Below the pieces are notes generated by a model. The model worked only from the letters and a program-made list of their open reading frames with translations. It had not been told where the DNA came from and made no database searches. A stretch of DNA of 64,000 nt from Lophium mytilinum (Eukaryota): NCBI GenBank assembly GCA_010093605.1, contig MU004193.1:124001-188000 (forward strand), in the 5' to 3' direction. Position 1 is the stretch's first letter. Every line of letters starts with the position of its first letter. This document shows, piece after piece, positions 1,960 to 49,292 of this stretch. The position numbers and the translations under genes were made by a program.

Positions 1960-2080
1960 TTTTGACGCCACAGCGCGGCCCGACTTTTCGGCTGGTCTGT
2001 TCCTGGTCGGATCGGCCCGATGTTCTTTGGTGTGGTGATGTCAAGATCCCAACTCACACAATGCCTCAAGAAACTCAACA

Positions 2081-18619: not shown

Positions 18620-21600
18620 ATGACTACAATGGCTGGCTTAGACGATCCATTCGTCGATGATCAAAGCCATGTAGCACACCTTCCCTTGGAAAAGCACACG
18701 GACAAGGGATCCCGAGCCGAAGGTTTCGAACCGCGTGAAAATGGAAGAGCTTTGCCAAATAACGACCATGAAAGCCGCCTCAACGCTTCCCACTGCCTCC
18801 GCGAAAAACTCTCGAAAATCCTAGAGGCTCATCCAATTGGGTTAAATCCAGAAGGTGTCTACCTCCCAGAGGATGAAATTGACAAACTTTTCAACGAAGA
18901 CGCGATCCAGAGTGTGCATGACGGCGGGCTGGACTCCCGACTGGCCGAATATATGGCGGACCATGCGAAGAGGACATTTGCAACATTGTTGCAGGTCTTT
19001 CCCGACTGTAAAGCTCGTCAGCAAGCTATGGAAGCTCTCAAAGCAAACAACTTCACCGATAACGAGTTGCCGTCTCTTGAACTTACGTTGTGTTATTGTT
19101 ATTGCCGCCCACGCCGTGATCGCACTTGCAAACACTATTTTCCAAGCGACAAACCTTGGGATACTGACTACTTGAAGGACTTCAAACTCAAACGATGGCG
19201 TTTCCTTGTGCCCAAGTTTGAAACCAACATTTTTCTTTACGAGTTCGACAAAAATCGACTGCTACCTTTCACAGAAAAGGTGCCCGGTGGAGAGATATCT
19301 AGCGGCCATTTTAGCGACGTCGCGATTGTAGAGATGTTGGCTAGCAAGCAAGACAAAGACAACATTTCAGAAAAGACAATCAAGGTGGTGTTGAAAACCC
19401 TCAAAAGAATCGGCGACCCCGGATACATTATCGAGACAGAATGGCGGCGCGAGGCAAAAGCGCACAAGCAAATGAACGGAAGCAGCGACAACATCATCCA
19501 AGCATATGCCGCAATCCGACAAATTGCATCACAACCGCAGAACGATGCATTCCATCTTGTGCTGGAGTGGGCCGATGGCGGAAACCTTCATGATTTTTGG
19601 TCCGAAAATCCCCTTGCTCAACTCGATCACCTGCATGTCGAGGAAAGCCGCCAACGCGTCAAGGAAGTACTGGAACAGCTTTGGGGATTATCACAAGCTC
19701 TGGAGCGAATGCATACTACCAGCGTTCAACGAACGCCTGGGAATAGCAGACGCGGCTCGGCAACATCTTCTCCAGTACGCTCGCCGGAGAGAGATGAACG
19801 TAGGAGAGGAGACAGTCTTGACGCTAGCGTAGCGTATTCAGATCATTTTTCCCTGCCTACATTCAACCTAGAAGCCACAGATGACGTAAGGCCGGATGAA
19901 GCAGTGCTTAAAGTTTCGGTTTCTGCTCCCGACTCGGCAAGCCCGGAGGTAGCTAGTTCTTCAACATTGACGCGAAGACGGACCGGTTTCACTGCAGAGA
20001 ATTGGCGTCACGGCGATATCAAACCAGAAAATATATTGCGTTTCAAAAATGGCAATTATCTAGGTGTTTTGAAGATCGCCGATTTAGGAAGAGCGCAGCA
20101 GCATTTGTTTGTGACGAAGATGAGGGAGACTAAGGAGAAGGAGTTGTGGACCACAAAATGGTATGAACCACCAGATCTCGAGGAGAAAAATCACAAGCAG
20201 GCTCAAGAGAAAATTTCACGCTTGTTCGACATCTGGTCTATGGGTTGCGTTATCTTCGAAGCTGCACTGTGGATGCTGTATGGCTATGAATCTTTCGGCG
20301 CTTTCGTGCGGGCGAACAAACTGTCTGCAGGAGAGCTAGGTGCGACACCATACTGGAAAAAAGGACAGCGAGGCGACTACGAACTAAGCGGTGCGGCCAC
20401 CAAGTGGATGAACTATATTTTGGAGCACGATCCTGAACGCAATGGCGCTATCGGTCACCTCGTCAAGTTAGTGAGAGACAGACTGCTCCAGATCCGCCTG
20501 CCTCTAGACTCGGATACCTACACGCCGGGGTTCCGTACAAATGCAAAAGACCTGAGGGAGCAGCTTCGTATGATCATCGTAGAGACCGAGAAAAGCGAAG
20601 AGTACTGTTTCAGCGGTGCTGATCGAACAAATGTGTCTCATCCGGACCCAGATGAGCTAAGCACAAACACATCGGCACAATCTGCAGGTCGTTCATCTTT
20701 GTCGCCTAACGATGCAGGGAAGAGGAGCGCGCCCGTGAGCCAAGGGCGAGGAACCGCAATAGCCATGCAGCGCGATTACTCTAACCGCATGGAAGATAAA
20801 TGGAAGACCCCCGCCGATAATGACTTCGTGGAGGCAAACTTAGCCAGCCGGCATTTCGTCGCTAGCGAGCCTGGTTTGTGTGAAATGTGCAAAAAAATCA
20901 ACATTTTGTCACCGCGTATCTCTTTTGATACGAGTGAGTTGGAGAAAAACTCAGATAATGAAGATTGTGATCTATGCGAGTTGGTCTGGAGCGCATCCAA
21001 GGATCTAGACCTCACGAGCCATAGCCGCATTTTATTGATACGATTAGCAAGCGATTTTGTCTTCGAAGGCACCAAAACAAAGAAAGTCTTACGGCTATGC
21101 CGTATGACAAGCGGTAAGCATGGAGAGTGCATCATGATGCTCAATCTAACAAGAACGATAGGGACTGTGCAGGACGCAACAATCCCGATAAGTGCACCAA
21201 GTATAGGATCTCCAAGAACTACTTTTGACATCGAATTGCCAAAAGCATGGCTAAAAGAGTGTGACCTCAAGCACGGCGGTACTTGCGCTCCTAGGCAAAG
21301 TAATCAGGTGCTACCTAGAAGGCTCATCAATGTCGAAAACCGGAAGAAGCCAAAGATCATAGATACAGCAGAGCTAGCATTAGTTCCAGAGAAGACCGAA
21401 TATGTTGCACTCTCCCACAAGTGGGGCCACATGCCTGAGAAGGCCGTAACAACGACAAAGAACATTGTTCAACGCAAGGAAAAGATCCTAATAAAAGAGC
21501 TCCCAGCTAGCTTTCTAGATGCGATTGAATTCACGTATGCCCTCAATTGCACCTATCTTTGGATCGATTCTCTCTGCATCTTACAAGGCCCGGATGGCGA

Positions 21601-22743
21601 TTTCAGTGAGCAAGCAGACACGATGCAAACGACCTTCAGCAATGCGTACTGCGTTTTAGCCGCTTGCAGTGCTGAGAGTGCCACGGATGGCTTTCTGAAA
21701 GATCGCGAGCCACGATGCGTCAAATTTGGCGATGTCTTCGTTTCTGCAGTCACTGATGATTTTGAGCGGGACGTCCTCCACAGTCCTCTCAACAGCCGCG
21801 GGTGGGTCTTACAGGAGCGAGCACTCGCGCGTCGAACCATCTTCTTCACAAAAACCCAAATGTATTGGGAATGCAGTGACGGCATCCGCTGCGAAACCCT
21901 GACAAAACTCAAGAAGTAAGAGACGAAATCTTTTAACAATGCGAGCATAACTAACACCCATTGCGTAGCGATAAAGCTGCGTTCCTCGGTGATTCAAACT
22001 TCCCCGATTACACGATTGGACCGCAGAGTTCCGTAGGGGAGCAGATCGCTCTTATCATCGACTTGTTCCAGCGATACACTAGACTAGAGTTTTCGCATCC
22101 GGAAGACCGACCTATCGCCATCGATGGACTCATGGACAGGCTCAATGTCGCATTCAAGACGAAAAGTCTCGCAGGGCTTTTCGAGACATTCTGGGGTCGC
22201 TGTCTACTCTGGCGGAAGGCTGACGGCGCAGTACCGATGAAGAAGATTCTGGGTGGAACACACACTCGTAAAATTCCCCCGACCTGGTCGTGGATGGCCT
22301 TTGAGGGCGAAATCTCTTTCATCGAGCCTGGAGGCGGGAAAATCGATTGGAACCGCGCTGATATCATCCTGCCTGATATCATCCTGCCATCCACCACTCG
22401 CGCCCCAGTTTCGTGGCTCAGAACGAGTCATCGAGGTGATGTTGTGGCGATCCGGGCCAAGGCGTTTAAGTTTGAAGACGCCGGAGACACTGTAGATGCT
22501 ACCGATCGCCAGGAGTTCTACGATGGCGGCAAGGAACTTCCGAGAGCCTTGACGAAATGTGTGGTCATCGGCAGCGAGAAGCCGCATGTCAGCAACACTG
22601 ACAGGAGAATGCACTATGTAATGATTGTTAGGGCGATCTCAAATGCTCCTAACGCGGCGTCTTACGAGCGTGTTGGTGTTGGATATATGTTGGGGAAGTT
22701 CATTGGCCTAAGTCGTTCCCCTCTTGATGTGACGATTGAGTAG
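18620..22743 (+). CDS. Protein kinase-HET domain fusion protein (TOL-like HET)
   Basis: Kinase motifs SSGHFSDV, VVLK, REA, LEWADGGNL, HGDIKPENIL, KIADLG, DIWSMGC. HET motifs LPRRLINV, YVALSHKWG, YLWIDSLCILQ, PLNSRGWVLQER. Introns 21114-21161 and 21916-21968; C-terminal PTWSWMA and YERVGVG. Confidence 0.92.
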
Positions 22744-30073: not shown

Positions 30074-32766
30074 CTACGGACGCATCACGTTAGAGTCGGC
30101 AATCCACGCGTCCCATTGCGCCCAGTTGATCGCCTGGGTAGCACTGCCATCCACACCGTGCCCTTGGGCTACTAAGAAATCCAGGTCCATGTCCATCACA
30201 GCGTCCGAACCGCCCACGCCGCCGTCATCAAGCCCGTTGATGAACCAAAATGGATCCTCTCCAGAGGCGCCGTTGGTTTGAGTCAGATCCGGGTAGTGTG
30301 GGGTTGTGCTTTGCTGAAGATACGTCGAGTCCAGAGTATCGCTCAGATTGATGATTCCAGCATCCAGCCTCGGGCCCATGGTGTGAGCGTTTGCCTGGTT
30401 GTGGCTCTCTGGAGCTCCAGATCGAATGGCCTTTGCATCTCGCGCTTGTCTTTTGGCCTTTGCGACCTCGCGTAGCTGGCGTAGTTGTAGTATGAATCTC
30501 GGTGTTGGCGGAGATGCGTTTGCGGTTTGCAGTGCAGCTTCGCGATCACTGAATGCTTTGAGACAGAGATTGCCTATAGCAATGTTAATAGGCTTCTTTG
30601 TGTCGAGCACCATATCTGGGGTGTTTCCGTAAATGTTGGCAATGAGTTGCCATGCCTTCTCGGCGTCTACCATGAGTGGCTCGACTCGGAGGGTATCGAG
30701 GACGTGGATGATGGCGTGCCATTGCTGGAAATATGGCGCGTGCCATGAAAACTTCTTGAGCTGGGGATTGGACTGCAACATATTGTGCTGCTCGAGAAGC
30801 TTCATGGCGATTTCCCAACCCCATTGACGCTCGGAGAGGGGTGTTTCTTCTATGCTGGCCCATCTTCGGGGGTGGTGTGTCAGGAAGCGAATAACGTTCA
30901 AGGCAAATCGGGCCACAAGCATGGACACGAGATGCAGCGGCTGTGACGGGTCGCAGTATCGGAGGTATTTCGTTTCGAGCATTTCCTCGAGCTCTCTGAT
31001 AGTGGCATCCATGTCTATGCTTTCGTTCCCTAGTGTATGGACGCCCCAGTCACTCAAAGTCTTTCCTTGCTCCCGGAACTTGGCGACACGGACGGCCGCG
31101 AAGTCGGTAAATTCGTATCTCAAGACAACAAAGACGAGATCTGTCAACTTGCCGGACTCGGATACTAGTGAAGGCACGCCTGGGTAGAGCTGGTCATCGT
31201 TGACGTTGGTCGGCCACCTCGTGCTTTCGGCACCAATATCTAGATCTCGAAACTTGGCGAGGCCACATAGTTCAGCGGTGCGGAAGTCGTGCGTCTTCAG
31301 CTGCCACCAGATGCGTCGCCGCATCTCACTTTCGAACGGAGGCAGACCGAGATATGATCCGTCGCGCTCAAGGCCCATACCTTGTGCGATCCGTACAGCC
31401 ACGCCAGTCAAGGACCAAACAGCACGTGGTTCATAGACATCTCGCACCGAGAGGATATGAAGAACTAACGCTTGAAGGACAACGAGGTTGGTGGTTCCCA
31501 TAAACTTGGCTCGCGACAATGCAACTTTCGTGGCCGAGTTGTACCGTGATAGTAGGATCTTGCGAGGCTCGCCGAGTCTTTCTTCGCACTCTTCATCCTT
31601 CAGCGACATGACGGCCACGCTGTAGATAGCAAAAACGAGTGCTTCGAAGCTCCGTGGTATGGTCCCGATACTGCTTGCAGCTTTTTGGATCGCCGGTCGT
31701 AACGTAGGGACGTGCACGATCTTCGTAAGAGGATCGATGTTCTCCACGAAAATTTGCCATAGTTGAAGTATCCGTTCGGGCGGCGGATGGCGGGACCTAG
31801 CGTTTGACTTTTGTTGACTACTGAGCAGAAATCTGAAGTCGTCATCGGATGCTTCTAGGTCGCTCGAATCATTTGAATAGTCCTCAAGAGTATCCTGGGG
31901 ATCGTTCGACTAATGGTGCTATTAGCGCTCATTTCAGATTAATACTCCATATCCCTTGGCCACTCGCATTTGATTCTGCGGTTTCGATAAAGATGCAACC
32001 AATAGGAAACTTTGAGTAATAAAAACTGCAGCGAAACTTTTGATCAACACACGCCCCGTAGGCTTATCGTAAACAAGCTTAGTACCGTTTGAGTTTTTGT
32101 AGTACAATATAAAAGACGGGAAAAGGGCAATGTTAAAAAGGCTAAAAGGTTTGCAAGCCACCCCAAATGGTGTCAGACTGCCGCTCTATGTTTAAGGGAA
32201 AGTCCGGGCGTTGTGGCACGACGGGCTAAGGGATATGTAAGAAATCTACTAAAGCTACTCACCTCGTCTACCACTCTCGTCCACAGATTACTAGGTAGAT
32301 CTTAGCGAATGGTCATAGACAAATAGTGCTAAGGAACCCACGTTTCGACAAACTTAAAGTTCTCGGGGCTTTGTACTGCCTGCGTCATGTGGTTCGATCG
32401 GCTCGACTCGATCTCAATACAAAAAGGGCTCTGCAATTGCAATTCTTTGGTAGTCGCTTCCGCTGGGTGACTCGATCCGCTCCGAGGCGCAGAGTCGGGA
32501 GTGTCTGGGAGCTTGTTTAGGTCAATGCCCTGCGCCTGAAGTAATGCTTCGTAATGCTTAAGTCGGTCGGTCAAGATCTGGTCGTTGATACGCCTCCGTC
32601 GTTTTCGAGGTGGCTGGGAGTGGTTGTAAACGCAATCAACTTTATGCTTGACACACGCGCTGCATGGGATTTGCCGGTCGCATTTGACTTTTCGGTCGGC
32701 GCATCGGATGCAAGAGAAGGTAGGCCTACTAGGGGCGGTCGAGGAAACGGAAGCTAGAGTCTCCAT
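30074..32766 (-). CDS. Zn(II)2Cys6 transcription factor with fungal-specific TF domain
   Basis: SCIRCADRKVKCDRQIPCSACVKHKVDCVY; micro-exon NLWTRVVDE; NIDPLTKIVHVP, AVRIAQGMGLERDG, EMRRRIWWQL, PTNVND. Confidence 0.93.
31948..32237. mobile_element. MITE family B inside the TF intron 31910-32262
   Basis: TIRs CATATCCCTTGGCCACTCG and CGACGGGCTAAGGGATATG (16/19). TA on the right flank, TC on the left. AT-rich interior. Removing it leaves a normal ~60-nt intron. Confidence 0.65.
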
Positions 32767-33137
32767 GATATATTATTGGAGCATTGAAGCTCGCGATGAT
32801 GAAGACGGGAGTCGACAAAGAGTCGAGAATAGTTGCAGAATGGTTATGTCATCGAGGTCACCACTTTATGCGCGCTACCAGGCCTACCCATGTCCACGAC
32901 GCCCTTGAAGGCAGCATAACTTCTATCCCGCCCTCTATGAAACTTATACAGAAAGTGGTTGGGTGTACTCAAAGGGCGGTGTAGGATAGTATTAGCGAAC
33001 TATCTCAAAAAACGTTGGAAAAGAAGCCTTCGCGAAAGAGACTGTTTCGCCCGTCCTAGCGTTCTTCGGCCTTTTATGACCAGCGGCAAGGACTTTTCAA
33101 ATGCAACTCTATAGCACTCCCAATTCGGTATGACTAA

Positions 33138-33227
33138 CTTTGGAATATCTGGAAACTTGTTGGAGCACTCCAAGCAGTAGCAGATAGGTGTACACGCAAC
33201 CGCAAAAACATCTCTTGATGATGTGCC
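33138..33227. mobile_element. Partial family A MITE (copy 3, reverse orientation) in the divergent promoter
   Basis: TATCTGGAAACTTGTTGGAGCACTCCAAGCAGTAGCAGATAGGTGTACACGCAACCGCAAA aligns by eye with the reverse complement of ~4110-4200. Confidence 0.75.
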
Positions 33228-33485
33228 TACGTGGCTTTTGATTGGTCGCTCGGGTTCGGGCCTCGGACGCCCGAGCATTTAGAGAACCCTCCCCCAACTG
33301 AGAACTCTCAACCCACATCGTTTTATTCATACTGCTCCGAAGCCGACCCTTCTTTTCTCCGACTGAAGCTCAGCTAGAAGCTATTTAACTATGGCAGTAC
33401 TCAAATCAAAGTTAGAACATCTACCTTCTCAATTCCTCAAGGGTTTTATCATTTTTTCTCCTTTTCTATCGCATTCAAGCTCGTG

Positions 33486-34742
33486 ATGCACGTTTTGATC
33501 AGCGGAGCGGGCATCGCTGGGCCCACGCTGGCATGGTTCCTAGCAAAGACCGGAACGCGCGTTACCCTGGTCGAGAAAAGCCCCTCCCTCCTCCCCAATG
33601 GGCAGAACGTCGACATCCAAGGCAGCGCACTCACAATCATCCAGAAGATGGGACTGTGGGAACAAGTTCGGCGTTTCAACACGACTGAAAAGGGTACCAA
33701 GTTCATCAATCCAACGGGACAGCCATTTGCATCCTTTCCGATCACGGAGGGCCCAGGAAAGAGTGTCAGCCTCACTTCGGACTGCGAGATTCTTCGTGCA
33801 GACTTGGCAGCGATCCTCCACGATGCGACGAAAGATCATCCGAATGTGAAGTACCTGTTTGGTACCACAATCAAGGATGTCGTTTCGAATGGCGATGACT
33901 CTGTCAGGGTCGAATTGAGCAATGGGGCAGTACAGGAGTTCGACCTCTTGGTCGCAGCAGACGGCCAGTGGTCAAAGGTGCGAAAGCAATGCTTCCCTCC
34001 GGAGAGTGTCAAAGTCCTCCACAAAGGCAATTACGTCGCCTACTGGACCGTTCCCCGCCTACCCAAGGACAACGACTGGTGGAACGTCTACCTAGCTCTT
34101 CCATCACGATTCATCAGCATCAGACCCGACCCACACGGTACTATCCGGGCTCTGTTTTCTCTAATGCCCTGTAATAGCGGCCAAGAAAAGATATGGATGG
34201 AGGCATCCAAGGGTGACCGACAAATGCAGGAAGCGCTCCTCAGAAGGGAGTTCGGAAACGCAGGATGGCAAGCGAAGAGGCTCTTGAACGCCATGGATCA
34301 GGCGCCCGACTTCTACTTCCACGAAATCGCACAGGTCAAGATGTCCAAATGGTTCTCCTCTCGCGTCGTTTGCCTAGGAGATGCCGCCTATGCTCCGACG
34401 CCGCTTACAGGAATGGGCACTACGCTGGCCATAATCGGGGCCTACGTCCTTGCCGGCGAACTGAGCAAGCTCGGCGACGGCGAACACCCGTCAAGGGCGC
34501 TCGAGGGTTACGAAAGCGTCTTTCGCCCATTGGTTGACGAGATGCAGCAGATACCTTTCTTCTTCCCGGCTATTGCCCATCCCGAGACGGCATGGAAAAG
34601 ATGGCTGATCCAGGCCTTGGTTTGGGCGTTCTCCAAGGTCCTGGCATTTCCATGGCTGGCGACAAAACTCGGCAACGAGGGTAATAGGGAGAACTTTTCC
34701 TTGCCAGAGTACTCAAGTTCTGATTCAAAGGGTACGAAGTGA
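33486..34742 (+). CDS. FAD-dependent monooxygenase/oxidoreductase, intronless
   Basis: HVLISGAGIAGP, GQNVDIQG, EILRADL, FDLLVAADGQWSKVR, VVCLGDAAYAPTPLTGMGTTLA. Confidence 0.93.
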   Translation: MHVLISGAGIAGPTLAWFLAKTGTRVTLVEKSPSLLPNGQNVDIQGSALTIIQKMGLWEQVRRFNTTEKGTKFINPTGQPFASFPITEGPGKSVSLTSDCEILRADLAAILHDATKDHPNVKYLFGTTIKDVVSNGDDSVRVELSNGAVQEFDLLVAADGQWSKVRKQCFPPESVKVLHKGNYVAYWTVPRLPKDNDWWNVYLALPSRFISIRPDPHGTIRALFSLMPCNSGQEKIWMEASKGDRQMQEALLRREFGNAGWQAKRLLNAMDQAPDFYFHEIAQVKMSKWFSSRVVCLGDAAYAPTPLTGMGTTLAIIGAYVLAGELSKLGDGEHPSRALEGYESVFRPLVDEMQQIPFFFPAIAHPETAWKRWLIQALVWAFSKVLAFPWLATKLGNEGNRENFSLPEYSSSDSKGTK

Positions 34743-36080
34743 AGGATGAAAGTGTAATCGGCGCCGAGGGGCCACCACCGTAATCTTTGTAATAGTATGT
34801 GATTCTACACATGTTTTATTCTGCACGTGATAATGCATGCCCTCAGCAGTACAAATAGGACGTTGGCAACTGGCTTTTCCTCAAACTCTGACGAGACGCG
34901 CAAGATCCTCTGGGATCGAAAGCAGATGCTGCAGAGAAAAATGGAGTGCGGAAGGAGAGATCGTGCAAAAGTATTGCAATCTTCTTCTATGGTGGGGGCG
35001 GGAGTTGTGGCTCTGCAGCGCAATGTACTGATGATGCTCCTCCCCACTAGCCATTGCTATTGGAGGCCATTATCTTCTGCGTTGGAAACAGATCACTATC
35101 TTCCACGAATCATACCTCGAATAGCCCCTTCGAACGCTCACAATCATCATCACAGCTGTTCAAATGCACCGCAACTCCTCCACCATCACAACCTTCCATT
35201 CTCAGTTTTGTTACCAACCGGTCGACACCACATGTGGTCGAAAGCAGGGCGTTGCTGATCCGGTCGTTAAACCATTTTGCTATCCATTTTTGATAGAACC
35301 CCCCAAACAATACTGTAAAGAAGATTCTGGCATTTGAGAGAGCTTTTATACTTGAAGGAATGAAAGGAATTGAGGCCGGGGCGTCAGCACGTGAGAATAA
35401 CCTTAGAGCTATTCAGGTACGCATCGGAATTCGTATTCCAAATATCGAATCCTCAAGTTCCAGATTATTGCGCCTATATGACGGGAAGCTTGCTATGTTC
35501 TTTGATGGTTCATAGCGGAGAAGCCGCGGAGAGGAAATATGGGCGGTTCACTGCTTTCGCAAAACGAGCCTAGAATGCCTAGGATCTCGCCGATATATCC
35601 CTTACCAAGCTATGAACCGCCCGTCTCAAATGATCTCCAAGAGACCTTTCGCGCATACTCGATCGATTCGCAGAGTCCGGAAGTTCCCAGGCGGAAGACG
35701 TCGTTCGTTGCCTACGACGAAGCCTAGAACGGTGAGAAACAATAGCTGAGACCCCACCCAGATGCTCACCGACTCAGTCTGGCCTGCCGCCCAGTTTTGC
35801 TCACGATTCCTATCATTAGCACACTCTCGATTATAGATTTGAAGATTTGATAAGTTTGTCTTGGCTTCACCATATCGGTTACTAGTCCCCAGCACTGCGC
35901 AGAAGTGCAAACTCGAGCGGGGTAGCAGCTGACTCTCTAGTGAGATATCAGTGGGCTCGACAAGATATCGAGCCCGCTGCCGTAAGACTGATATTGCTAT
36001 CAGCCTTCGATTTTTCAGCAATCGGCAATGTCGCCTCTTGCAAAACCGGGATCAAGTGGCAATGATGCCGCTTGTCAGTT

Positions 36081-36275
36081 GGGAAAGCAACCGGCTGTCG
36101 CCTTATGCAAACTGGGAAAGCAACCGGCTGTCGCCTTACGGCTGTCGCCTTATGCAAATTGGGAAAGCAATAGGCTGTCGCCTTATGCAAATTGGGGAAG
36201 CAACCGGCTGTCGCCTTACGGCTGTCGCCTTATGCAAATTGGGAAAGCAATAGGCTGTCGCCTTTTACAACTTGA
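36081..36275. repeat. Minisatellite: 33-bp unit with 14-bp internal duplications, forming an 80-bp higher-order repeat
   Basis: GGGAAAGCAA(CC/TA)GGCTGTCGCCTTATGCAAA(C/T)T units start at 36081, 36114, 36161, 36194, 36241; degenerate units on both sides (~36018-36370). Confidence 0.92.
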
Positions 36276-36381
36276 GAAAACAATGGACTATCGCCACTTG
36301 CAACAACAGGAAAACAATTGAAAAGCAATCGGCAAAATCGCCTCTTACAAAAGCAGAAAAACAATCAGCATCGAAGACAAC

Positions 36382-37236
36382 CTACTGCTCCTCGGCGGCT
36401 TGCTCTCGCGCCTTGTACTCAGCCTTCGCCTTGGCCTTAGCCTTGGACTGCGAGATTGGCTTTTCAGCCAGTTCGGTCAAGCGGTAGAGACGAAGATCGG
36501 TATCGCTCTGCGATTCCAGACGACCGTCGGTGAACAACGTGCGCTTTCCCACTTCTTCGTACTCCTCAAGCTCGCGTTTCTCCGGCTCTTCAGCTTCACG
36601 TTGTCTGCGCTCGGCTTCCAGCCTGTCGCGCTCCTTGTTATGCCGCTCGCACTGTTTCTACAAAGCCCGCTCGAACGCTCGCTCGTTCGCCATGCGAGCC
36701 GCATTCTCCCTGAATTGCGATTGGCGTCTTTTGGCTCGCTCGATCGCATCTTCGTCGTACCGACTCTTGATGATCCGCACCTCGCTCGGGGTCAGCGCGC
36801 TCAAATCATGACGAAGGCGACACTTTTCGGGATTGCGATCGTCCAGAAACTGAGCGGTGCAGCCGCACGCGGTTGGTGTGAGGAAAGCTGTCAGAAATTC
36901 GTTGGCACAGAGACCGTGAACGTCGAGCGCCTGGATCGCGCCGGGTATGAACGTCGTGCCTACGTCCTGTGGCTCAGGCGTGACCGGGGTAGCTCGCTCC
37001 TGTGGCGAGGCGGTGTTCGTAACGGCAGAGGTGGATGACTCTGCTGCGGACTGGTCTTTCATCACGACGTCTCCGCGACCTGAGGTCGAGGACTCTCCCG
37101 TCGTAGCAACGAGCGCGGCCCGCTCCTCAGCCTCTCGAGCCAGCCGTGCGACCCTCCTGGCGTTGTTGGCCGCATTTCTCTCGTTCCGCGCCAGGATGGC
37201 GGCGCGGATTTCTCTGCGAGCCGTTTCAGTCACCAT
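36382..37236 (-). pseudogene. Orphan coiled-coil protein with a CCCH-like Cys/His cluster and an internal stop
   Basis: MVTETARREIRAA...LCANEF...ACGC...KCRLRH...RAL*KQCERHNKERDRLEAERRQRE...AAEEQ*. TAG at 36658-36660 is followed by 91 more sense codons of charged sequence. Confidence 0.5.
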
Positions 37237-38811
37237 CTTCCTGAGGGTGGAGATTCCGATGGGAATATCGACAACACTTGACGAGATCGTAGGCGCTACG
37301 TGAAGTAGGATGTCGTGCAATCAAGAGTGCGGTGGGGGAAGATGAGTTGCTGGAAGAGCCCGACGCAGACGGACCAGTTAGATTACCTAAGTCTTGGTGG
37401 GCGCCAAGCCTTCAACGTCACGTGATACGCCTACTAGAATCTGTGCATCTATCATCGGCATTGTACGCTAAACGAGCCAAGAAGATATCTACCATGTTTA
37501 GATGCTTAGACACCAATCTTATTTCTTCTATCCGGACATATCTTCAAGTCTCTACCCAAGACCTCCATCCATTTTCATCAACATCAAAACTCCCAATATG
37601 CAAACCCCAATCCGCTTCTCGTCAAACTAAACAAACATTGATCCCTGCCGATTTTTCCGCATCCCAGATGCGTCCATCACTTCCAGCCAATTTGTTCACT
37701 GTCTTAAGGATGTTGGGGCTCCTTGGGGCTGGTGCGGCGAGGCTGGATGTGCTCAGGGGACCGCCAGAACATTCGGATTGCCGGAGATGTTATGAAGCTT
37801 ACCTAGATGCACCCGCAACGCGCTTCATTAGACTCTAGGATGTCGTCAGCCAACTTCCATGGGACGGAGACCACCCTGCGGAGCCTACCTCTACCCCCTT
37901 CCTGGACTTCTTCGCCAACAGCAAAGCCGAACCTAGAGAAGTAAGCGATAGATGTTGAGGATGAAAGCCATGACTTGCAATATCATGGGTAGTCATCCCC
38001 TAGAACCACGCAGAGGGAAAAGTACACTAAGGTACTCTAAGTTCACTTAGGGCGTTAGCCGTTTTCCAGCGCCAATAGCCTGATAGTGGAAAGCCTCAAA
38101 GCGAATGACTTAACTTTAAGTGGCGTTCGAGCTCTGACGCGAATAGTTCGACGTCAAAGGGAATCAAAGCGAATGACTCGACATTGAATGGTGGCTTTCA
38201 AAGAATTTCATCAGACTATTGCGTATTCCTAGACTCATAGAGCGGCATATTTTGACTTGGAGTTTGCTTCGTCAGAGTACAGTGACAGGCCATAAGTCTG
38301 GGCACACTGGTTCACTACCGCTGAGGGTCCCCCACCAAGTTTCCAAGATCCAGGGGTGATTCCGAGGTTTAAGCAGTGCAGATTAGGAAATCTCTTGACT
38401 AAGTGCTGGTTCAGCAACTAGGCTACCCCCAACAGTGGTGTCGAGTGGGCAATTTGGAGCCAAGCAGAATGAGTTGATATACCCAGACTTATGGCCTATC
38501 ATTGTACTTTCAAAGCGTGTATACTCTTATGCTAACTACCTCAGTTTTGTGGTTCCTGTTTGCTTACACTCTCAGTCACGGAGACCCTTCTACTTACTCA
38601 ACCGCATTACTGTCAGATTAAATCACTCCTCGAAGGATTCGACTGTCTTCATCGCTGTCCCGCCCGAAGTTCGACTTGATCCCAAAACTTCCACTACGCT
38701 CATCATTCTACTTTCGCAGGAGGGAGAAAGTGAAGTAGAACATTGCAAGCATTCGTGAATTCGTATCTACAAATACGTCTATATAAACACGAGGTAATGC
38801 CATGACGGACC

Positions 38812-40610
38812 TCACTCATACTTGGCCAAGAGCTCCTTCGCCTCAGCCCACTCACGGCGAATCGTGGCGGCATGCGCCGCGCTCCGGGGCTCTATATGAA
38901 CATTGAAAGGCAACGGCGATTGAGCGAGACCCGACTTGTATGCATGAACGTCGATGTCGATTTCCTCTCCAGTAACAGGATCCCGCGCTTTCGAGATTTT
39001 GAAAGCCCAGAGGATCTTAGCAATGGATCGCCACTGGTTGCGTTCCGCGAGATGGATACCAGGGCAGATTCGTCGGCCTGCGCCGTAGGTGTAGTGATCT
39101 AAAATCAGTCAGCCCAGTTTTCAAAGTGAAAAGAAAGGGGTGAATGTAGAGTCCTTACCTCGTCCTTCGTAGTCTCCACTGCCAGAGTAGGAGTCAGCCA
39201 GCCTTGAGAAGCCATCATATCGCTCTGGCCAGTATTCTTCGGCGTCCTTGAACTGAGCCGAATCATGGTTCAATGCCCTATCATCGATTAACGAGACGAC
39301 CACTTGTACATAGCCACAGGATACATACCAAACGGGAACAAAGACAGTTGACCCTTTGGGAATGAACATGCCTTCGTAAGTGTCATCTGCTTTGTGTTAG
39401 TCTCTTCTACCGTGAAGGTGTACTCGGTAGCCTTTACCTTCTCGAACCTTATGGGGAAATCCGACACTAGTGACAGGTCTCCAGCGTAATCCCTCCTTCA
39501 CCATGGCGTTGATATACGGGAGACTGTCGAAATCCTTCCAGGTAGGCGACCTATCCGACCCAATTTTCTCGTCAATCAAGGCTTGCGCTTTTGCTTGGAC
39601 ACGCGGGTAGCATGCCATAGCCACTATAAACGTCGAGAGCTGCGCCGTTGTCGTGTCTGCACCACCCTCAATCATCTCGCCGAGAAGGTTTTGGATGGAA
39701 TGCTCAGAAAGAATGTAATTGGGGTTCTTCTCGACCTCTACTAATAGAGAATCGGCCATGCACTCGCGCTTGTCGCCAACTGCGCGTCGTTTCCGCACAT
39801 CGTTTAGGGTTCCGCTCCATGCTACGTCCATCTTCTTGTTGACGCGGTAAGCTCGTTGCTTCCATGGAGCAAAGCGGGTTGGCCAGAGCTTGAAAATGGG
39901 GAAAACGTCTACAGGGGGGTTGGCTCCAGGTCCCATGGCTTCAGTCCACTCCTGCATAATGTCGAACACATTCGTCGCGTACGGATGGTCGATGGTAGGG
40001 GCTCGCTGGCCATAAGTAATGATGCCAGCGATCGAGGCAGTGGTCCGTTTGATATGCTCAATGAAATGTTCAGGGTCTTCGAGGAAGCCGAGCAGCAAGC
40101 ATTTCGCCTCTGCCTCTTGGATCGGAGAATGTTGCTCGTCGCATCTTCTGGGAGATAGTACTTGGGCCATTTGCTTGCGCTTTTCGCGCCATTCCGCGGT
40201 GTAGTCGTCGATAAGTGTGTGGTCCCCGCCTGTGAGTAGCCCTCCGACGTAGTCCGCAGGTCTGTCAGAGTAGATTGCTGACTTCTTATCGATCAAGTCC
40301 CGGACGGCTTTCCGATCGCATAAGACGATGATGTTTGTGGGACCGACGGTCAATGAGTAGATTTTGCCATATGTCTCAGCCCATTCCTTTAACCTGGTCG
40401 TATATTAGAATCGCGTCAAGAACACTATCGCGTCTGGGCATACTTCTTGTAAAACCCCTCGCGAGGGATCATCAAGGCATTCCCGAGAAACGGGAGCGTG
40501 GGAGGTCCTGGAGGCATATTAGGAAGCCGTTTCCCCATTTGACTCAGACGGTAGATGAGGACCACCACGCCGAGGCATAGCACCGCCGTCGTAGGTAGAG
40601 AAATCGACAT
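38812..40610 (-). CDS. Cytochrome P450 (resembles the CYP619/PatH-PatI type), multi-exon
   Basis: MPPGPPTLPFLGN, IYSDRP, EGGADTT, KEGLRWRP, PERY, DHYTYGAGRRICPG. Confidence 0.93.
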
Positions 40611-41421
40611 GTTGAGGTGTTGGAGACGATCAAGGAATGCTCCTGCAGGCTATCGCTGGATGGATTAGCGCGACTTTAGAAAGGAGAGAAGATGTGTGTC
40701 GTTTCATTAAGCGCTAAAGCAGTCTTTGAAGGCTTTCTGCACCAAAGTCACTGGTTCACGGAAAATGAGGGGGAATTCGCCCGACATAGCGATGTTCCCC
40801 CGTTCTCCCGATCCCCTCCCCCTCATTTCTTAGCCTGGATAGGAATGAGTAGCCAGACCCAAACAAGCGAAATGTCGAATCACCTCATAGAAAAAAGAAC
40901 TCAGTTGAGCTGACGTCTTCAACGCCAGGGCAAGAGCCATTCAGCATTGAACTCGGTGGAGCCCTCAGGGAGCAGATTCAGTCACGCTTCGGAGATTTTA
41001 TACCAGCAGTTCGCCCCGCTAACATCCCCGCCATTCTCAATGCCATGTGATCCTCAAATGGCAGTGATCAAACCACAGCATCTAGATATGTGTCTTATAT
41101 CTAAGCATCTTGATCATGTGGCCTGTCCTGCCTGCAGGCCTTACCCATTAGAGTTAAAGAACTTCGCTTATCTGACTCGACGAGGCCTGTGCTCCCAGCC
41201 TCCCCCCCATTCCCCTGTTTCCCCATTGCCCCGGTTTTTCCCCGGACTCAGGAATCTGGGGTCCCAGGGGGTTATTACGCCGAGCCTCGCATGCATAAAG
41301 CGCACCCAGGGACCTGGTATCGGATCTCGGGACTCCATCATTCTTGTTGCATCTGAGCGCTAGCAGGCCTTTTCCTTGAGAACATCGACACACTAGAAGG
41401 CTTCTTACGTGAAACACCACT

Positions 41422-43116
41422 ATGGCCGCCTCTGAGACCAAGGCGGAAGGCCACATGGCCGAGTTTATCCATGACGATGAAGCTCCGGAGATCCCAAAGC
41501 AGTCAAGGTTCCCGTCGCTCCTGAATTTCATGGTAGGTGTTCGAAATCCGCAAGGTTCGAAATGGTCTAATCGGCCCGTCAGATCATCATCGTGGCAGCA
41601 TCGTCAAGCTTCATTTTCGGCTATGGAAACAATGCAGCGGCAGGTTGTTTTGCTCAAGAGACGTTCATTGTCAAGTTCCTGAGTGGATCCAATGCCAATA
41701 CGATCATCGATGCGATCAACGCAATGTAAGCTGAAGGACTCCTTCACCATGGGCGTACAAGTCTCTGACATGAAACAGATTCTTCGGCGGAGGCTTCGTT
41801 GGGACGATTATCCAAGGCTACATTTCCGATGGCTGGGGCCGTCGTATCTGTGCACTCATGGCAGCCGTCCTCATGGCATTTTCCGGTGTCCTGGCCGCCG
41901 CGAGCGCGAACCCGGCCATGTTCATTGCTTCCCGTGCTATCACTGGCATTGCTGGCGGTATGATCATGGGGAACACGCCAGTGTACATGAGCGAAATCGC
42001 GCCCGCTCATACTCGTGGCCTCCTCGTCGGGATGCACGCCACCTGCCTGATCGTGGGATACATCGTCTGTGGAGTCGCCGCGCTGGGCTTCAACTTCGTC
42101 ACTCAGCCCATACAATGGCGTCTCCAGTTCATCCTGCTCACGTTCTTCTCTCTCGTCTGCGCCATCTCAGTTCTCCTCATCCCCGAGTCTCCCAGATGGT
42201 ACGTTGAGCAAGACAGGATCGAAGAAGCCTCGGCAATCCTGGAAAGACTCCATCGTACCAAAGCAGACCCATCTGCGATAATGGCTCGGGCGGAGATGGT
42301 ACAGATTGTGGCACAAGTCCACGCCGAAAAGGGCCTTCCTCACAGCTATTGGTATATCCTCAGCAACGCTCACCTCCGGAAACGAGCTTGGTGCTCAGTT
42401 GTACTCTTCGCTATGGTACAGTCTAGCGGCTTGTTAGTCATGTTCAACCTCATGCCTATACTATTTGCCGCGCTTGGATTCGATGCCCCTATGCAGCTTG
42501 GGCTCTCTATTGTCTGGACGACTGTTGCCCTGATTGGCGGCTCCGTGAACGCCCTGATCGTGGATCGCGTAGGACGAGTCAAGCTTCTCTGCATCGGCGG
42601 GTGCCTTTTGGTCATTGCAACGTCGATTCAATGCGCATTGCAAAAGACATACCTCCACTCGACCTACAAACCTGGTATCAATGCCAGCGTGGCCTTTTTC
42701 TTCATATTCATCATCTTCTACAGTTTCTCGGTCGACACAGTCGTCTACGTTTACAACGCAGAGATCTGGCCGACCCATTTACGGAGCAAGGGTGTGACCT
42801 TTGGCCTGGGATCCTATTTTATCTTCGGTGTCGTCTACAACAGCCCGGCCGCACAAGCGTTCGGCACGATCGGATGGAAGTACTATATCGTCTTTATCTG
42901 CATGACGGCGTTCTGCACGACTCTCATCTTGCTGACGTTCCCCGAGACCAAGGGGTTGACCCTCGAAGGTAAGCAGAATCAATTTCAGAGTCCCTCTTCT
43001 CCAAACCATCAGCTAATTGGGTGATAACAGAGGTGAATATCAAGTTTGGTGACAGCGTCGAGGTGTCCTTGAACGACATTCGACTGGATGACATCAAAGG
43101 CAAGCCAGAGGCTTGA
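41422..43116 (+). CDS. Sugar-porter family MFS transporter, 3 introns
   Basis: SDGWGRR, PVYMSEIAPAHTRG, QWRLQF, PESPRW, VDRVGRV, YNAEIWPTHLRSKG, PETKGLTLE. Confidence 0.93.
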
Positions 43117-43601
43117 GAATCATACAAGTATACATTAAGACGAAACCTGGCAGCGAGGCTCGGTTGGATGCTTGTTACTGCCGCTGATGATTGACTTTCT
43201 ACATAAATGCGAAAAAGCTCACGCAATGTTATAATTTATTCAGCAACTATCAAAGATCATCAATTTGAAATAGAGAATGCTTTCTGCATAGGGTGTTGCG
43301 CATTTTCATTGTGTCCCGGCTTTCAACGGGTGATCGTTACTAAAGCCACAACATCAGTGAAGGGAAAGGCGGCGAACGCGACAGGATGTCATCACGCAAA
43401 GTCTCAGGAGGCGTCACGAGGTAACCCACGAACAAAAGCCGCTTCTTACGCCACGGGAGGGCTATCGTTGGCGGGAGACGGACAAGATCTCTCCCCAATT
43501 TGAGCTCTTCGAACCTTTTAGATCAATTATGAAACGTTGCAATGCATGCTAGCTGACTTGCGTCTGATTTGTATGCAATTTCGCACTTGCTAACGGTGTG
43601 C

Positions 43602-44477
43602 CTACGAAGCGATACCGAGAGTGAACCCGCCATCTACAGGAAGAAGTTGACCGGTAATCCACTGACTACAAGGAAGACAGAAGAACATGACCGCGTCCGC
43701 GATATCTTGGGCCTTACCAAGGCGTGGCCAGGGGTTGATCTTCTTCCATGTATTGATGATGTTCTCATCCTCGAAGTTCACTCGCGAGATGCCAGTAGCA
43801 GTGATTCCAGGAGCCACGCAGTTGATGTTGATGTGATCTTTAGCGTGATCGATAGCTCCTGCCCTCGTGATGTGATTGAGAGCAGCCTTGCTTGCCGAGT
43901 ACGCGACCTCTCCCTTAATAGCCACATGTCCAGCACATGACGAGATGTTGACGATTCTACCTCTGCTACCCCATGTCTCATCCAGGTCATTCTTCTTGTA
44001 CAAGCTGATTGCGAGGCGACATGCCTTAGCCACACCGAGGGTGTTGACGTCGAAAGTCTTTTGCCACAGCTCATCCGTTTCGTCCACGAAGTCCCTGAAA
44101 GGCGAGGCCCAGTAACCGGCGCAGTTGATTAAGATATCTAGGCGGCCGAATTTCTGACTGCTTAGACCCAGAACCATGTTTTGAGGGGACGAGTCTTTGC
44201 AACTTACATCAATCGTTTCTTTGAATGCCTTCTCCACTTGCTTCAAGTCGCCCATATCCACCGCAACGAAAACAGCCTTTCCACCTAGTCCGATGATCAC
44301 ATCTGGTGTCGTGATATGCAGATCTGGCTCAAAGCCTTGCGGGTTCGCTTCTGCGCGCAGATCGCAACAAACGACGCTTGCGCCTTGCTTCGCCAGAGAA
44401 AGCGCACACGCCCTGCCGATGCCCGAGGACGCGCCCGTGACAAGGGCCACCTTCCCGACCAATTGCTTGTCCGACAT
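43602..44477 (-). CDS. Short-chain dehydrogenase/reductase
   Basis: GKVALVTGASSGIG, FGRLDILINCAG, IVNISS, YSASK, NCVAPG, ITGQLLPVDGG; one in-frame intron near 44154-44207. Confidence 0.93.
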   Translation of the reverse strand: MSDKQLVGKVALVTGASSGIGRACALSLAKQGASVVCCDLRAEANPQGFEPDLHITTPDVIIGLGGKAVFVAVDMGDLKQVEKAFKETIDVSCKDSSPQNMVLGLSSQKFGRLDILINCAGYWASPFRDFVDETDELWQKTFDVNTLGVAKACRLAISLYKKNDLDETWGSRGRIVNISSCAGHVAIKGEVAYSASKAALNHITRAGAIDHAKDHININCVAPGITATGISRVNFEDENIINTWKKINPWPRLGKAQDIADAVMFFCLPCSQWITGQLLPVDGGFTLGIAS

Positions 44478-44906
44478 TGAAAAGTACAAGCGTCTGAGAG
44501 AGTTGAGAAAGTTGTAAAAGCTCGATGTTCATCGGTTTGAAGAGGAGGTGCGGGGTAAAAACTGTAACCTGTAAACACCAAAGACCCTCCCCCTCCTTTT
44601 TATTAAACTTCCACGCGCGTGAAAGCTAGTCTAGCTCGAAGCATGTGGCCCAGATCAGCCGACTTTGATCCGAGATCTACCCCCCCACCGGAGACGTGCC
44701 GACATGCTGGGTCCCCCCTCACCCTATCTTGGCTTAGCCTGTGGGGTGGGACTCAGGTCCACTATTTTCCCCAGTCAATGCTCAATTTTCCCCCGAATCC
44801 ACTTTAAGCATTTGAAACTGATCCGAATCGTCACCGTCCTTAGTTCTCACGTATGACATTCTTGCAATTCTTAAAAAGTTTCTGAATAGCCCCTTTTCTA
44901 TCAATC

Positions 44907-46394: not shown

Positions 46395-48298
46395 ATGTAT
46401 TTCCTCACTGGTGTCGTGTTATTGCTATCTTACGGCCTCTACCGAGTGCTGAGCATTGGAAGACGGCACCCTCGAATGCCCCCAGGGCCCCCAACTATTC
46501 CACTTCTCGGCAATGCGCACCAGATTCCAAAGACGGGATTAGGAAAGCAGTAAGGAAACATAATTAGAGGGCTTCATGCCATACGTACATCTAACTTCTT
46601 CGTTAGATTCCGAACCTGGGCCGACAAGTATGGGCCGATATTCTCGCTCAAAATTGGCCCTAGAAATCTCGTGGTGGTCTGTGACCGGAAAGCCGCAAAC
46701 GCCCTACTAGATAAGAAAGGCAGCATCTACTCCGACCGACCGTTTGTCTACGTCACGAACTACATCACACATGGCGACCGTTTGACTATGGAGAACGCGA
46801 CTCCAGCATGGAGGGAGCAGCGTGCCATAGTCTCACGCAACTTGAGCCCGAAGCTGTTGGATGAGAAACATTTCCGAGTCCAGGAGGCTGAGTAGGCAAC
46901 CCCTGCGCCCTTTTCCTGAGCGAGCTGACTGATGGCCAAATTCAGAGCCGTAATATTCATGAACAACATCCTGAAGCAGCCGGAACGCATGTTTGATTAT
47001 GCTCGACTCTACACAGCATCAGTCGCAAGCACGCTGATATGGGGCCAGAGAACCCCAGATCTCGAATCTTTCTGGTACAAGGACTTCTACGAGCTCATGG
47101 ACTTGGTTTGTTACCGGCGATCTGTACTATCGAAACATTTAGCTGATAACCAACGTAGTGGGTGCAAATAGAAGAGCTTGGGGCGAATCCTCCCATCGAC
47201 GAGTTCCCTTTCCTGAAATACCTACCTGGGAACTGGAAGACACGAGCGGACAAGTGCCAGAAGTTGCAGACTGCTATGTGGACCAAAGCGAGAGCAATCA
47301 TCGATAAGAGAAGATCTGAGGGCGATAAGAGGGACTGTTTCATTGATACCAAACTTGACGACTACGAGGCCAAGGGGTTCCCCATGTCCCAACACGCGTT
47401 CAACTATCTCTTTGGGGTGTTGCTTGAGGCTGGAGCAGATACGACGGCCAACCAGATCTTGACAATCATCTTAGCCCTTGCCAAATATCCAGAGGTCGCG
47501 AAGCGCGCAAGGAAAGAGATTGATGCCGTGTGCGGAAAAGACAGAGCTCCACTGTTCTCGGACTTCAATGCGCTGCCCTACATCAACTGTATCGTCAAGG
47601 AAGGGATGAGGTGGCGGCCAACGTATGTTCTGTCTTACAAATACCTTCTTGTCATGTATTTAAAGCGCCGATACTAACATTCAAAAGTGCCTCCGCAGGC
47701 TTGCCCCATTTGTGCACTCAAGGTTCGTTTCCTCCCCCTTTCATGCTCCAACTCTTCAAAGCTAAAGACTGTTTGATCCAGATGACGAATACGAGGGCAT
47801 GCTCATTCCTAAGGGCACCACGGTTTTCCTCGGGGTCTGGGCTATGCATTATGACGAGAAACAATACCCCAATCCCAACGACTTCAATCCAGACCGCTAC
47901 CTAGGCTACCCGAAACTTGCGCATGACTATTCCGTTGGAGACTATAGCAAACGAGATACGTATGCCCCTTCAAAGCTTGGCATTCAAAACTGACGAGAAT
48001 GCAGTAATTACATCACTACGGCTACGGCGGCGGTCGTCGCATCTGTCCAGGCATGCATCTCGCAGAGCGGAATATGTGGCGTATTACGGCAAAGCTTCTA
48101 TGGGCATTTGATATCTCTGAGCCGGTGGACCCAGTTACGGGGAAGGTGACTTCATTGGATGTGGACGCATACAACTCAGCAGTGCTACTGTGCCCATTGC
48201 CCTTCAAGGTGAAAGTGGTGCCGAGGAGCAAGGAGCATCTCGCGGTTATTGAGCGAGAACTGGACGACGCTACGAAGTTCATGTCGCAATGGAACTAG
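46395..48298 (+). CDS. Cytochrome P450 (paralog of 38812-40610); last intron appears to be AT-AC
   Basis: MPPGPPTIPLLGNAHQIP, IYSDRP, EAGADTT, KEGMRWRP, PDRY, DHYGYGGGRRICPGMHLAERN. Confidence 0.9.
47956..48011 (+). other. Putative U2-type AT-AC intron
   Basis: CGA G|ATACGT...CTGAC...TAATTAC|AT CAC TAC restores R-D-H-Y-G-Y-G; the paralog has a GT-AG intron at the same position and phase. Confidence 0.7.
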
Positions 48299-49292
48299 AG
48301 AACATGCCAACCAGTTGGGCATGGGAGCAGTTAGGACTAGTGTTCAATATCGATAGCTCTTGCTGCGATCTTCTTCCGTGTGGAGTCAGTCTATAGGATA
48401 CCAACTCACCATCAATGTTCTTTCTACTTGTGGTTGCCGAGACGCGCATCGAACCCCAGACGAACCCAAATGAGAACGTGGTAACTATGCGCGGTATCGG
48501 ACTGCCTCGTAAGCTGAGGAGCGTCCTAGTCTTCGGCATTCGGTGGACTCGATTTAGAGTTTAGACCCTGGACTACCCCGCCCCCCCGTTCTGCCCCCCT
48601 GCCCCCCTCGTTTCTCCCCCTGTCCCGCCCCCACACCCGAGATCCGAGAACATACATAAACGCAGGGTTCCCACGAACCTTGCTAAGATCCCCCTCCCCC
48701 CCCAACTACAGCCGCGGCTTCAGATGACAACCGACCACAGACCAACTCAACCATGATCGAGTCTTCCCGCGATGTTTCCGAAGTAAATTTGAGCCCAACT
48801 CTGCGAATTTGCCTGGATACCGCAGTTGTACCGTCCGAAGCATTACCTAACACCATCTTCTTTTCGACGACAAGTGGCACTCATGGGGAATCGATCATCA
48901 TGCAAGAAATCCCCCACGATCTCGCTTCCGAATCTAGGACGTCGCTTGCAACCCACTGCCGGTGCTAGGCAATAGTCGAGTGTCCATACGAGTTTTCCGG
49001 CGAAAGAAGGCTAGCATACACACCACAGCGAGCTAACGGACCGAATCCATAGTACCAGAGCGAGGTAGAAAATCTTCCCACCGCAGATACACATCTGTTA
49101 TAGCATGCTCAGACTGGTTTATCGGACTGACTCCCGGACGGACAACGCACAAGGACATGACAGGGGTTCCCCAGATTCGAGTATAAGCTGCAGGAGGCGC
49201 AGCGAGAAGATGGGAGAATACATCCTGAACTTCACTTTCCAATTCCTCGTACCCTTCTCAGACCACCTCCCGACCCACGCACCACCGACATC

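Follow-up and report, generated by a model that had tools for sequence, protein, structure and literature searches.

Background

Introns of the U2 type, the class of the major spliceosome, can begin with AT and end with AC and remain functional. These "AT-AC II" introns are extremely rare in nature: Sheth et al. 2006 (PMC1557818) give 15 in human, 6 in mouse and 3 in fly, or 24 in five model genomes. According to the same paper, in yeast and human a first intron base changed from G to A is rescued, "although less efficiently", when the last base changes from G to C. Here we describe a segment with AT and AC ends in a cytochrome P450 gene of the filamentous ascomycete Lophium mytilinum. The DNA that we analysed, called the window below, is a stretch of 64,000 nucleotides (nt) from contig MU004193.1 (assembly GCA_010093605.1, positions 124,001 to 188,000, forward strand), and our coordinates count from its first letter. 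The segment, at 47956-48011, is very probably a genuine, inherited AT-AC intron of the U2 type ("type II") in a functional P450 gene.

In filamentous fungi, AT-AC II introns are "hypothesized" in xylanase genes in the account of PMC1557818. Zhao et al. describe two AT-AC introns in Fusarium graminearum, FGSG_08743 and FGSG_10073 (52 nt), that are supported by RNA sequencing (PMC3577648), and Frey and Pucker report AT-AC as rare in fungal annotations (PMC7072748). Splicing by the minor (U12) system is described as missing from Ascomycota or Pezizomycotina in two surveys (PMC2846911, PMC10639083).

Structure of the P450 gene

The host gene (46395-48298, plus strand) begins with an ATG at 46395, ends with a TAG at 48296-48298 and has seven exons. 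Its 519 codons are open throughout once five GT-AG introns and the 56-nt segment are excised. The segment reads ATACGTATGCCCCTTCAAAGCTTGGCATTCAAAACTGACGAGAATGCAGTAATTAC, with the pattern ATACGT...CTGAC...TTAC, and the five remaining introns are GTAAGG..TAG (57 nt), GTAGGC..CAG (54 nt), GTTTGT..TAG (53 nt), GTATGT..AAG (65 nt) and GTTCGT..CAG (59 nt). The features of the gene are as follows, with the basis of each in brackets.

46395-46549, 46607-46891, 46946-47105, 47159-47622, 47688-47722, 47782-47955 and 48012-48298 (stop included), plus strand: P450 exons (spliced model)
47956-48011, plus strand: probable AT-AC intron, 56 nt, phase 1, splitting an Asp codon as G|AT (sequence, spliced model, joint in an RNA contig)
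47953-47961, plus strand: 5' splice site GAG|ATACGT; family consensus GAG|ATAAGT (sequence, comparison of 18 introns)
47990-47994, plus strand: branch box CTGAC, with 18 nt from its A to the last base of the intron (sequence)
48009-48014, plus strand: 3' splice site TAC|ATC; family consensus YAC|AYC (comparison of 18 introns)
47782-47955, plus strand: exon 6, ending ...DYSKR plus G (exon translation, PF00067 match)
48012-48298, plus strand: last exon, with the (D)HYGYGGGRRICPG heme loop and the C-terminus (exon translation, PF00067 match)

The heme loop of P450 enzymes has the motif FxxGxRxCxG, whose Cys is the thiolate ligand. We obtained KRDHYGYGGGRRICPG solely when 47956-48011 was taken out. 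The product of the 519-amino-acid (aa) model then reads ...DYSKRDHYGYGGGRRICPGMHLAERNMW... and likewise ...SKRDHYGYGGGRRICPGMHLAERNMW..., and the string YGGGRRICPG is found in this AT-AC-spliced product alone, being missing from the public model and from the alternative splice described below. Along the Pfam profile PF00067, exon 4 occupies positions 192-336 (E 1.4e-21), exon 6 positions 353-390 (E 1.9e-12) and the last exon positions 403-441, which is the correct order. Scanned alone, the last exon scores 22.5 bits, slightly under the PF00067 cut-off of 22.8.

We also considered other ways of reading the junction. If the intron is retained, translation halts after 436 aa. Two further features belong to splices with canonical ends.

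47960-48004, plus strand: 45-nt segment with internal GT and AG ends, the candidate competing splice (sequence, in-silico splicing)
47934-48067, plus strand: 134-nt "intron" with GT-AG ends in the public gene model (excising it gives the 493 aa and the C-terminus of that model)

Splicing from GT47960 to AG48004 leaves 11 extra bases and shifts the frame, giving a 473-aa product without the heme Cys, and an acceptor at 48004 used in the correct frame runs into a TAA at 48005. On inspection of the sequence, no AG lies between 48005 and the Cys codon, and therefore a canonical acceptor cannot yield the heme motif. A twin intron (stwintron) was rejected as well, by inspection, since excising 47960-48004 first makes no GT...AG ends.

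Exon 4 is identical (100%) to a 493-aa protein of Lophium mytilinum (Dothideomycetes, Mytilinidiales). This public model (P0004) joins ...AHDYS to RNMWRI..., and the corresponding excision of 47934-48067 costs 26 residues, the heme Cys among them. An earlier note on this DNA had claimed that the 56-nt excision is needed for the heme motif, that the internal GT-AG pair shifts the frame and loses the Cys, and that gene predictors mis-model the site. The open 519-aa P450, the 473-aa product and the public model's use of GT47934...AG48067, without a heme loop, bear out all three. Gene finders that are blind to AT-AC thus delete or garble an essential heme-binding site.

Exon 5 (47688-47722) is a micro-exon of 35 nt between introns of 65 and 59 nt. 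Its region is also mis-modelled in the public models of several relatives, for example Lachnellula arida ("...RWRPTFPIDDEYEG").

Recurrence in metagenomic DNA

A single scan of metagenome contigs with ASAYCAYTAYGGNTAYGGNGSNGGNMGNMG, in which the last exon could be preceded by AG or by AC, yielded 33 loci, of which 20 are AC-type and 13 are AG-type. Many of these loci lie on contigs that measure 30-316 kilobases (kb). They divide as follows.

AG-type, 13 loci: uninterrupted coding across the site, in other subfamilies; the AG is made up of the last base of an Arg codon and the first base of the Asp codon
AC-type, resolved, 18 loci, 17 distinct (L018 = L026): intron starting with AT straight after ...CGA or AGA plus G
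AC-type without a recognisable upstream P450 exon, L001 and L003: set aside from the resolved loci

A GT-AG intron at the site was seen in none of the 33 metagenome loci. Among the 17 distinct introns, the donor hexamer is ATAAGT in 11, ATAAGC in 2, ATGAGT in 2, ATAGGT in 1 and ATATGA in 1. Because AT...AC recurs at the same codon in 17 distinct unrelated contigs, the arrangement goes beyond chance.

Together with the window intron, these 17 form a set of 18 (R, purine; Y, pyrimidine). At the 5' end, the exon finishes with G-A-G (-3 to -1) in all 18, and the intron has A at +1, T at +2, R at +3 and G at +5 in every member, with A at +4 and T at +6 in 15 each. The 3' end is Y-A-C|A-Y-C, where A at -2, C at -1 and A at +1 are invariant and Y at -3 occurs in 17 of the 18. 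Lengths range from 49 to 84 nt. The A of the last CTRAY box lies 11-21 nt from the 3' end in each case. Signals of the major (U2-type) class, namely ATRAGT, CTRAC and YAC, are thus found throughout the family, and the window donor GAG|ATACGT departs from the major-class consensus (RAGT at +3 to +6, exon AG at -2/-1) by its C at +4 alone.

The loci were also aligned, with splicing allowed and blind to terminal dinucleotides, to a cleanly modelled relative. At the site, the alignment gave AT-AC (with slides of 1-2 nt) in 10 of 10 testable loci (9 distinct) and in the window, and a canonical pair never appeared. For 12 (11 distinct) of 21 other intron intervals in these genes, GT-AG or GC-AG was among the junctions with the best score. 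Seven of the remaining nine had no canonical pair in the top score, several of them spanning two introns plus the micro-exon, and two had no valid junction. Alignment of single introns breaks down where the 35-nt micro-exon sits between two introns (query positions 356-368), and these rows were not counted.

A few individual loci deserve mention. L001 has an ATAAGT...CTGAC...AC element 70 bases ahead of the match, before a heme-loop exon that reads RRMCSG (Ser for Pro). Its upstream frame contains an in-frame TAA and we found no P450 exon there, and L001 is probably a decayed copy. L032 belongs to the same subfamily as L006 (identical exon end ...RLASDYAGSPDFNNR). It lacks the intron at the site, runs without any intron for 314 codons, and is either an intron-loss copy or a contig derived from a transcript. 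Pairs of AT-AC paralogues occur on single contigs, L009 with L028 (316-kb contig, about 20 kb apart) and L027 with L031 (146-kb contig). This clustering suggests local duplication that carried the odd intron along.

Signatures in deposited proteins

The junction was inspected in 94 homologous proteins, all of which carry PF00067. We classified 82 of them, those 330-700 aa long with the window's own model left out. The public model reads into the intron in 44 cases and has a clean RDH[YF] in 24, while 14 are uninformative. In the 44 read-through models, the conserved Arg is followed by "D-K/E/N..." ("RDK...") and not by D-H-Y, and/or the last exon is entered as "...x-H-H-Y-G-Y-G". The first of these signatures means that the Asp codon is G plus AY and that the intron starts with A-Y-A-A-R, which is GTAAGT with the first G changed to A. 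The second means that the last intron base is C, not G. Complete in-frame read-throughs are present in Aspergillus turcosus (RD-KWRLSTKHGSWLTSILH-HYGYGGGRRICPG) and in an A. fischeri model.

Read-through models span 20 genera. Those whose class was checked are Lachnellula (Leotiomycetes), Fonsecaea (Eurotiomycetes), Coniochaeta (Sordariomycetes) and Myxozyma (Saccharomycotina/Lipomycetes). The orthologue in Mytilinidion resinicola, with more than 90% protein identity, reads KRD-TYAPFKGWYSKLTS-MHLAERNMW. Its D-T-Y-A-P (KRD-TYAPFKG..) is the read-through of the window sequence, and therefore a second genus retains the ATAC.TATGC start. Also among the closest orthologues, those of five Lachnellula species have RDKYP... 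or RDEYP.... Inspection of the same intron in orthologues had been suggested earlier as a check, and the AT start is indeed implied by the Mytilinidion model and by the five Lachnellula models. All eight public models of the window gene's orthogroup lack the heme motif.

The Lipomycetes yeasts Myxozyma melibiosi (P0025) and Kockiozyma suomiensis (P0011) are clade members at 71-74% identity. The Myxozyma model reads RDKICPG, the signature of an AT start. The presence of Lipomycetes in the clade reflects either very old inheritance or transfer between subphyla.

Transcripts

Two RNA runs were examined: a soil metatranscriptome in the form of assembled contigs (X1) and a run labelled Lophium mytilinum (X2). 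One X1 contig (record 2, 698 nt) covers 47550-47622, 47780-47955 and 48012-48332 with 1, 5 and 15 mismatches, respectively (21/570, about 96% identity). It joins 47955 to 48012, skipping 56 nt with AT..AC ends; the shorter side of the joint has 176 letters, and the joint can slide by up to 2 nt. The two upstream introns are also missing from this contig, and so it derives from spliced RNA. Junction reads that allow non-canonical sites had been proposed as the direct check, and the 47955-to-48012 joint is of the expected kind, in the RNA of a close relative. The slide arises from an AT that stands after the exon end and again after the intron end. We prefer the AT-AC borders over the slid ones because they are the sole pair that is invariant in all 18 introns.

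The remaining X1 records, which start at 48012 or 48014 or join 47848 to 48012, come from relatives less than 90% alike and were excluded from the evidence. One X2 contig lies on 48010-48139 and is preceded by ...GCTGACAACCCCAA. It hints at another ...AC|ATCAC intron, whose 5' end is unseen.

Versions with GT-AG ends

The window contains a second P450 gene with an intron at the same place.

38812-40610, minus strand: paralogous P450, 528 aa, four GT-AG introns (spliced model)
39158-39099, minus strand: GT-AG intron of the paralogue, 60 nt, matching the AT-AC intron in codon and phase (sequence)

The borders of the paralogue's intron are CGAG|GTAAGG...GATTTTAG|ATCACTAC (TTTTAG|ATCAC). A comparable case is metagenome locus L002, where a second P450 lies tail to tail with the AT-AC gene and has AGAG|GTAGGA...AAGCAG|ATCACTTC at the same codon. 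In oriented coordinates, the two lie at about 2012-2426 (minus) and 1129-1202. In the window, the AT-AC and GT-AG paralogues are likewise mixed, about 6 kb apart. The 20 introns at this site that are known at the DNA level (the 17, the window intron and these two) pair AT with AC or GT with AG, and mixed pairs were not found among them.

In a FastTree phylogeny of 114 rows, many of them partial and with the junction columns removed, the evidence for AT-AC is spread over a clade of 91 rows and a clade of 8 rows. A long branch from a basal polytomy leads to the window's GT-AG paralogue, and the GT-AG neighbour in L002 falls inside the 8-row clade. This distribution fits an old switch from GT-AG to AT-AC followed by at least one further switch, though the tree lacks the strength to settle which way the change went. 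A switch from GT-AG to AT-AC, if there was one, must be old because the AT-AC state is common to a large P450 clade.

Other features of the window

Several genes surround the two P450 genes (window 30074-44528).

30074-31909, minus strand: open reading frame of a fungal-specific transcription factor
33378-34742, plus strand: FAD-binding monooxygenase
41774-43024, plus strand: MFS sugar-type transporter
43602-44528, minus strand: short-chain dehydrogenase

This neighbourhood could be a catabolic or secondary-metabolite cluster. Farther away, a long open frame at 18620-21919 (plus strand) encodes a protein-kinase domain and, at the C-terminus, a heterokaryon incompatibility (HET) domain. The P450 stop is followed, about 270 bases downstream, by a C-rich stretch of low complexity (GCCCCCC / CCCCT repeats, window 48570-48700).

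Discussion

Several points weigh against reading the segment as an AT-AC intron that is spliced in this gene. The search pattern itself dictated the 3' AC of the 17 metagenome introns, which leaves just the 5' AT as independent evidence. At +4, 15 of the 18 introns have A but the window donor (ATACGT) has C, and this copy could splice less well. The informative soil contig is RNA of a close relative that differs at 21 of 570 bases and whose own genomic intron is unseen, and its joint slides by 1-2 nt, so that TA-CA or AC-AT borders fit it equally well. The X2 run has next to none of the gene's sequence words, containing just relatives less than 90% alike, and is uninformative on expression. 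Finally, removal by the major spliceosome is deduced from motifs and from the literature.

The alternative that survives best, which we nonetheless regard as improbable, was put forward in the earlier note. The AT-AC splice would compete with the internal splice from GT47960 to AG48004, and the ratio of the two would act as an on/off control of the enzyme. Both sites are present, GTATGC is a plausible donor and the GT-AG product is frameshifted. However, the GT at 47960 corresponds to positions +5/+6 of the ordinary donor consensus (ATRAGT) and occurs in 15 of the 18 introns, whereas an AG between the branch box and the AC is found in 7 only, at varying distances and phases, so the pairing is not conserved. 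The sole informative RNA contig has the AT-AC joint and not the competing one. Some predictors used internal pairs for in-frame insertions (e.g., RDNLHHYGYG, RDKSSHHYGYG), and we saw no RNA evidence for these insertions. The proposed control is thus unsupported.

Slightly less probable still is that relatives splice the AT-AC intron and that the Lophium copy, with its weaker ATACGT donor, does not do so productively because it is decaying or silent. In keeping with this idea, the two RNA runs contain no transcript of this strain, and the C at +4 departs from the family consensus. Against it, the reading frame stays open through all seven exons, the heme loop is complete, and the Mytilinidion orthologue keeps the D-T-Y-A-P intron start. 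Moreover, the 96% identical mRNA contig is spliced exactly at the site, from 47955 to 48012.

That the intron is of U12 type and is removed by the minor spliceosome can be given almost no credence. AT-AC terminal dinucleotides are typical of that class, but the donors are of the ATACGT/ATAAGT kind, the U12-type donor ATATCC occurs in none of the 18 introns, and the branch box CCTTRAY occurs in none of them within the last 45 nt. Instead they have CTRAC, the usual fungal U2 box, and the two surveys cited above report Ascomycota as being without minor splicing. An error of sequencing or assembly in an ordinary GT-AG intron is about equally far-fetched, having nothing but the rarity of AT-AC in its favour and requiring two errors at precisely the first and last intron base, when the same two letters are found in 17 distinct contigs of other assemblies and implied by 44 independently annotated genomes.

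We therefore return to an AT-AC intron of the major class. The claim that it is U2-type and not U12-type had been made earlier and agrees with the motifs of all 18 introns. The GT-AG intron that had been noted at the same place in the paralogue is there as well, at 39158-39099. The accompanying idea of a natural conversion from GT-AG to AT-AC stands in part. The AT-AC intron is real in our judgement, whereas a conversion particular to this gene does not hold, given AT-AC in the closest orthologues and in a P450 clade across four Pezizomycotina classes and a Lipomycetes yeast.

The known biochemistry of such introns suggests how this one might be removed. U1 would recognise GAG|AUACGU, a fungal donor matched at every key position except +1 (and, in this copy, +4). 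The near-perfect remaining consensus probably compensates for the A at +1, as in GC-AG introns. U2 would pair with the CUGAC branch box (family CURAC). The first splicing step may tolerate A at +1, and in the second step a last base of C in place of G may restore the non-Watson-Crick contact between first and last bases, as A-C instead of G-G. The AT-AC state is likely to be self-perpetuating because a single reversion gives AT-AG or GT-AC. Its persistence is thus probably explained without a special function, in that reverting one end alone would break splicing.

We lean, though only slightly, towards a broader interpretation. The major spliceosome would have kept one P450 intron position in the AT-AC state in at least Dothideomycetes, Eurotiomycetes, Sordariomycetes, Leotiomycetes and a Lipomycetes yeast, with GT-AG in neighbouring paralogues. 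As a group, these introns would then outnumber every other known natural set of the U2-type AT-AC class and would form a natural proof by covariation of the pairing between first and last bases. The state would also be an evolutionary trap, since the way back takes two changes at once. They would also account for an undescribed, systematic annotation error that strips the heme Cys from about half of the clade's models.

The practical consequences concern the databases. In 44 of 82 deposited homologues and in 8 of 8 orthogroup models, about half of the clade's public proteins sampled, the catalytic heme loop is given incorrectly. Whoever relies on database sequences to count, classify or express such P450s obtains dead or garbled enzymes, and many affected entries are named as look-alikes of patulin or aflatoxin-pathway proteins. 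One rule, allowing ATRAGT...YAC at this codon, would mend the models. Moreover, dozens of diverged copies in hosts without a minor spliceosome provide a comparative set for the donor, branch and 3' features that permit the major spliceosome to use A...C ends and for the frequency of switching between GT-AG and AT-AC.

Comparison with described introns

The kind of intron, type II AT-AC, is already known, and its conservation across a gene family appears to be undescribed in print. Our searches of full-text literature brought up no account of fungal P450 genes with an AT-AC intron or of family-wide conservation, with subscription journals and P450 nomenclature sites outside the scope of those searches. 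U12-type AT-AC introns share the terminal dinucleotides, but their donor and branch motifs are absent from the P450 intron. The xylanase introns involve the same group of organisms and the same proposed class in a different gene family. The Fusarium graminearum introns are also from Pezizomycotina, and the size of the one in FGSG_10073 is within the P450 range.

Engineered double mutants of yeast and human introns, with the first G changed to A and the last G to C, reportedly combine two changes that are each harmful alone and suppress one another. The P450 intron has the same pair of base changes, and these mutants are the basis of the mechanism proposed above. Unlike the laboratory mutants, which splice "less efficiently", it represents a natural and long-lived state.

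The closest natural counterparts are the U2-type AT-AC II introns of animals, such as those which PMC1557818 lists for human SCN4A, SCN5A and TAF2. As in the P450 family, AT...AC occurs there on a GTRAGT donor with G1 changed to A, the branch site is ordinary, and the borders are kept between orthologues. In contrast to the animal cases, the present host is a filamentous ascomycete with introns of 50-80 nt, the use of U1 and U2 is here deduced, and AT-AC is found in many paralogues and at least five classes rather than in one orthologue pair.

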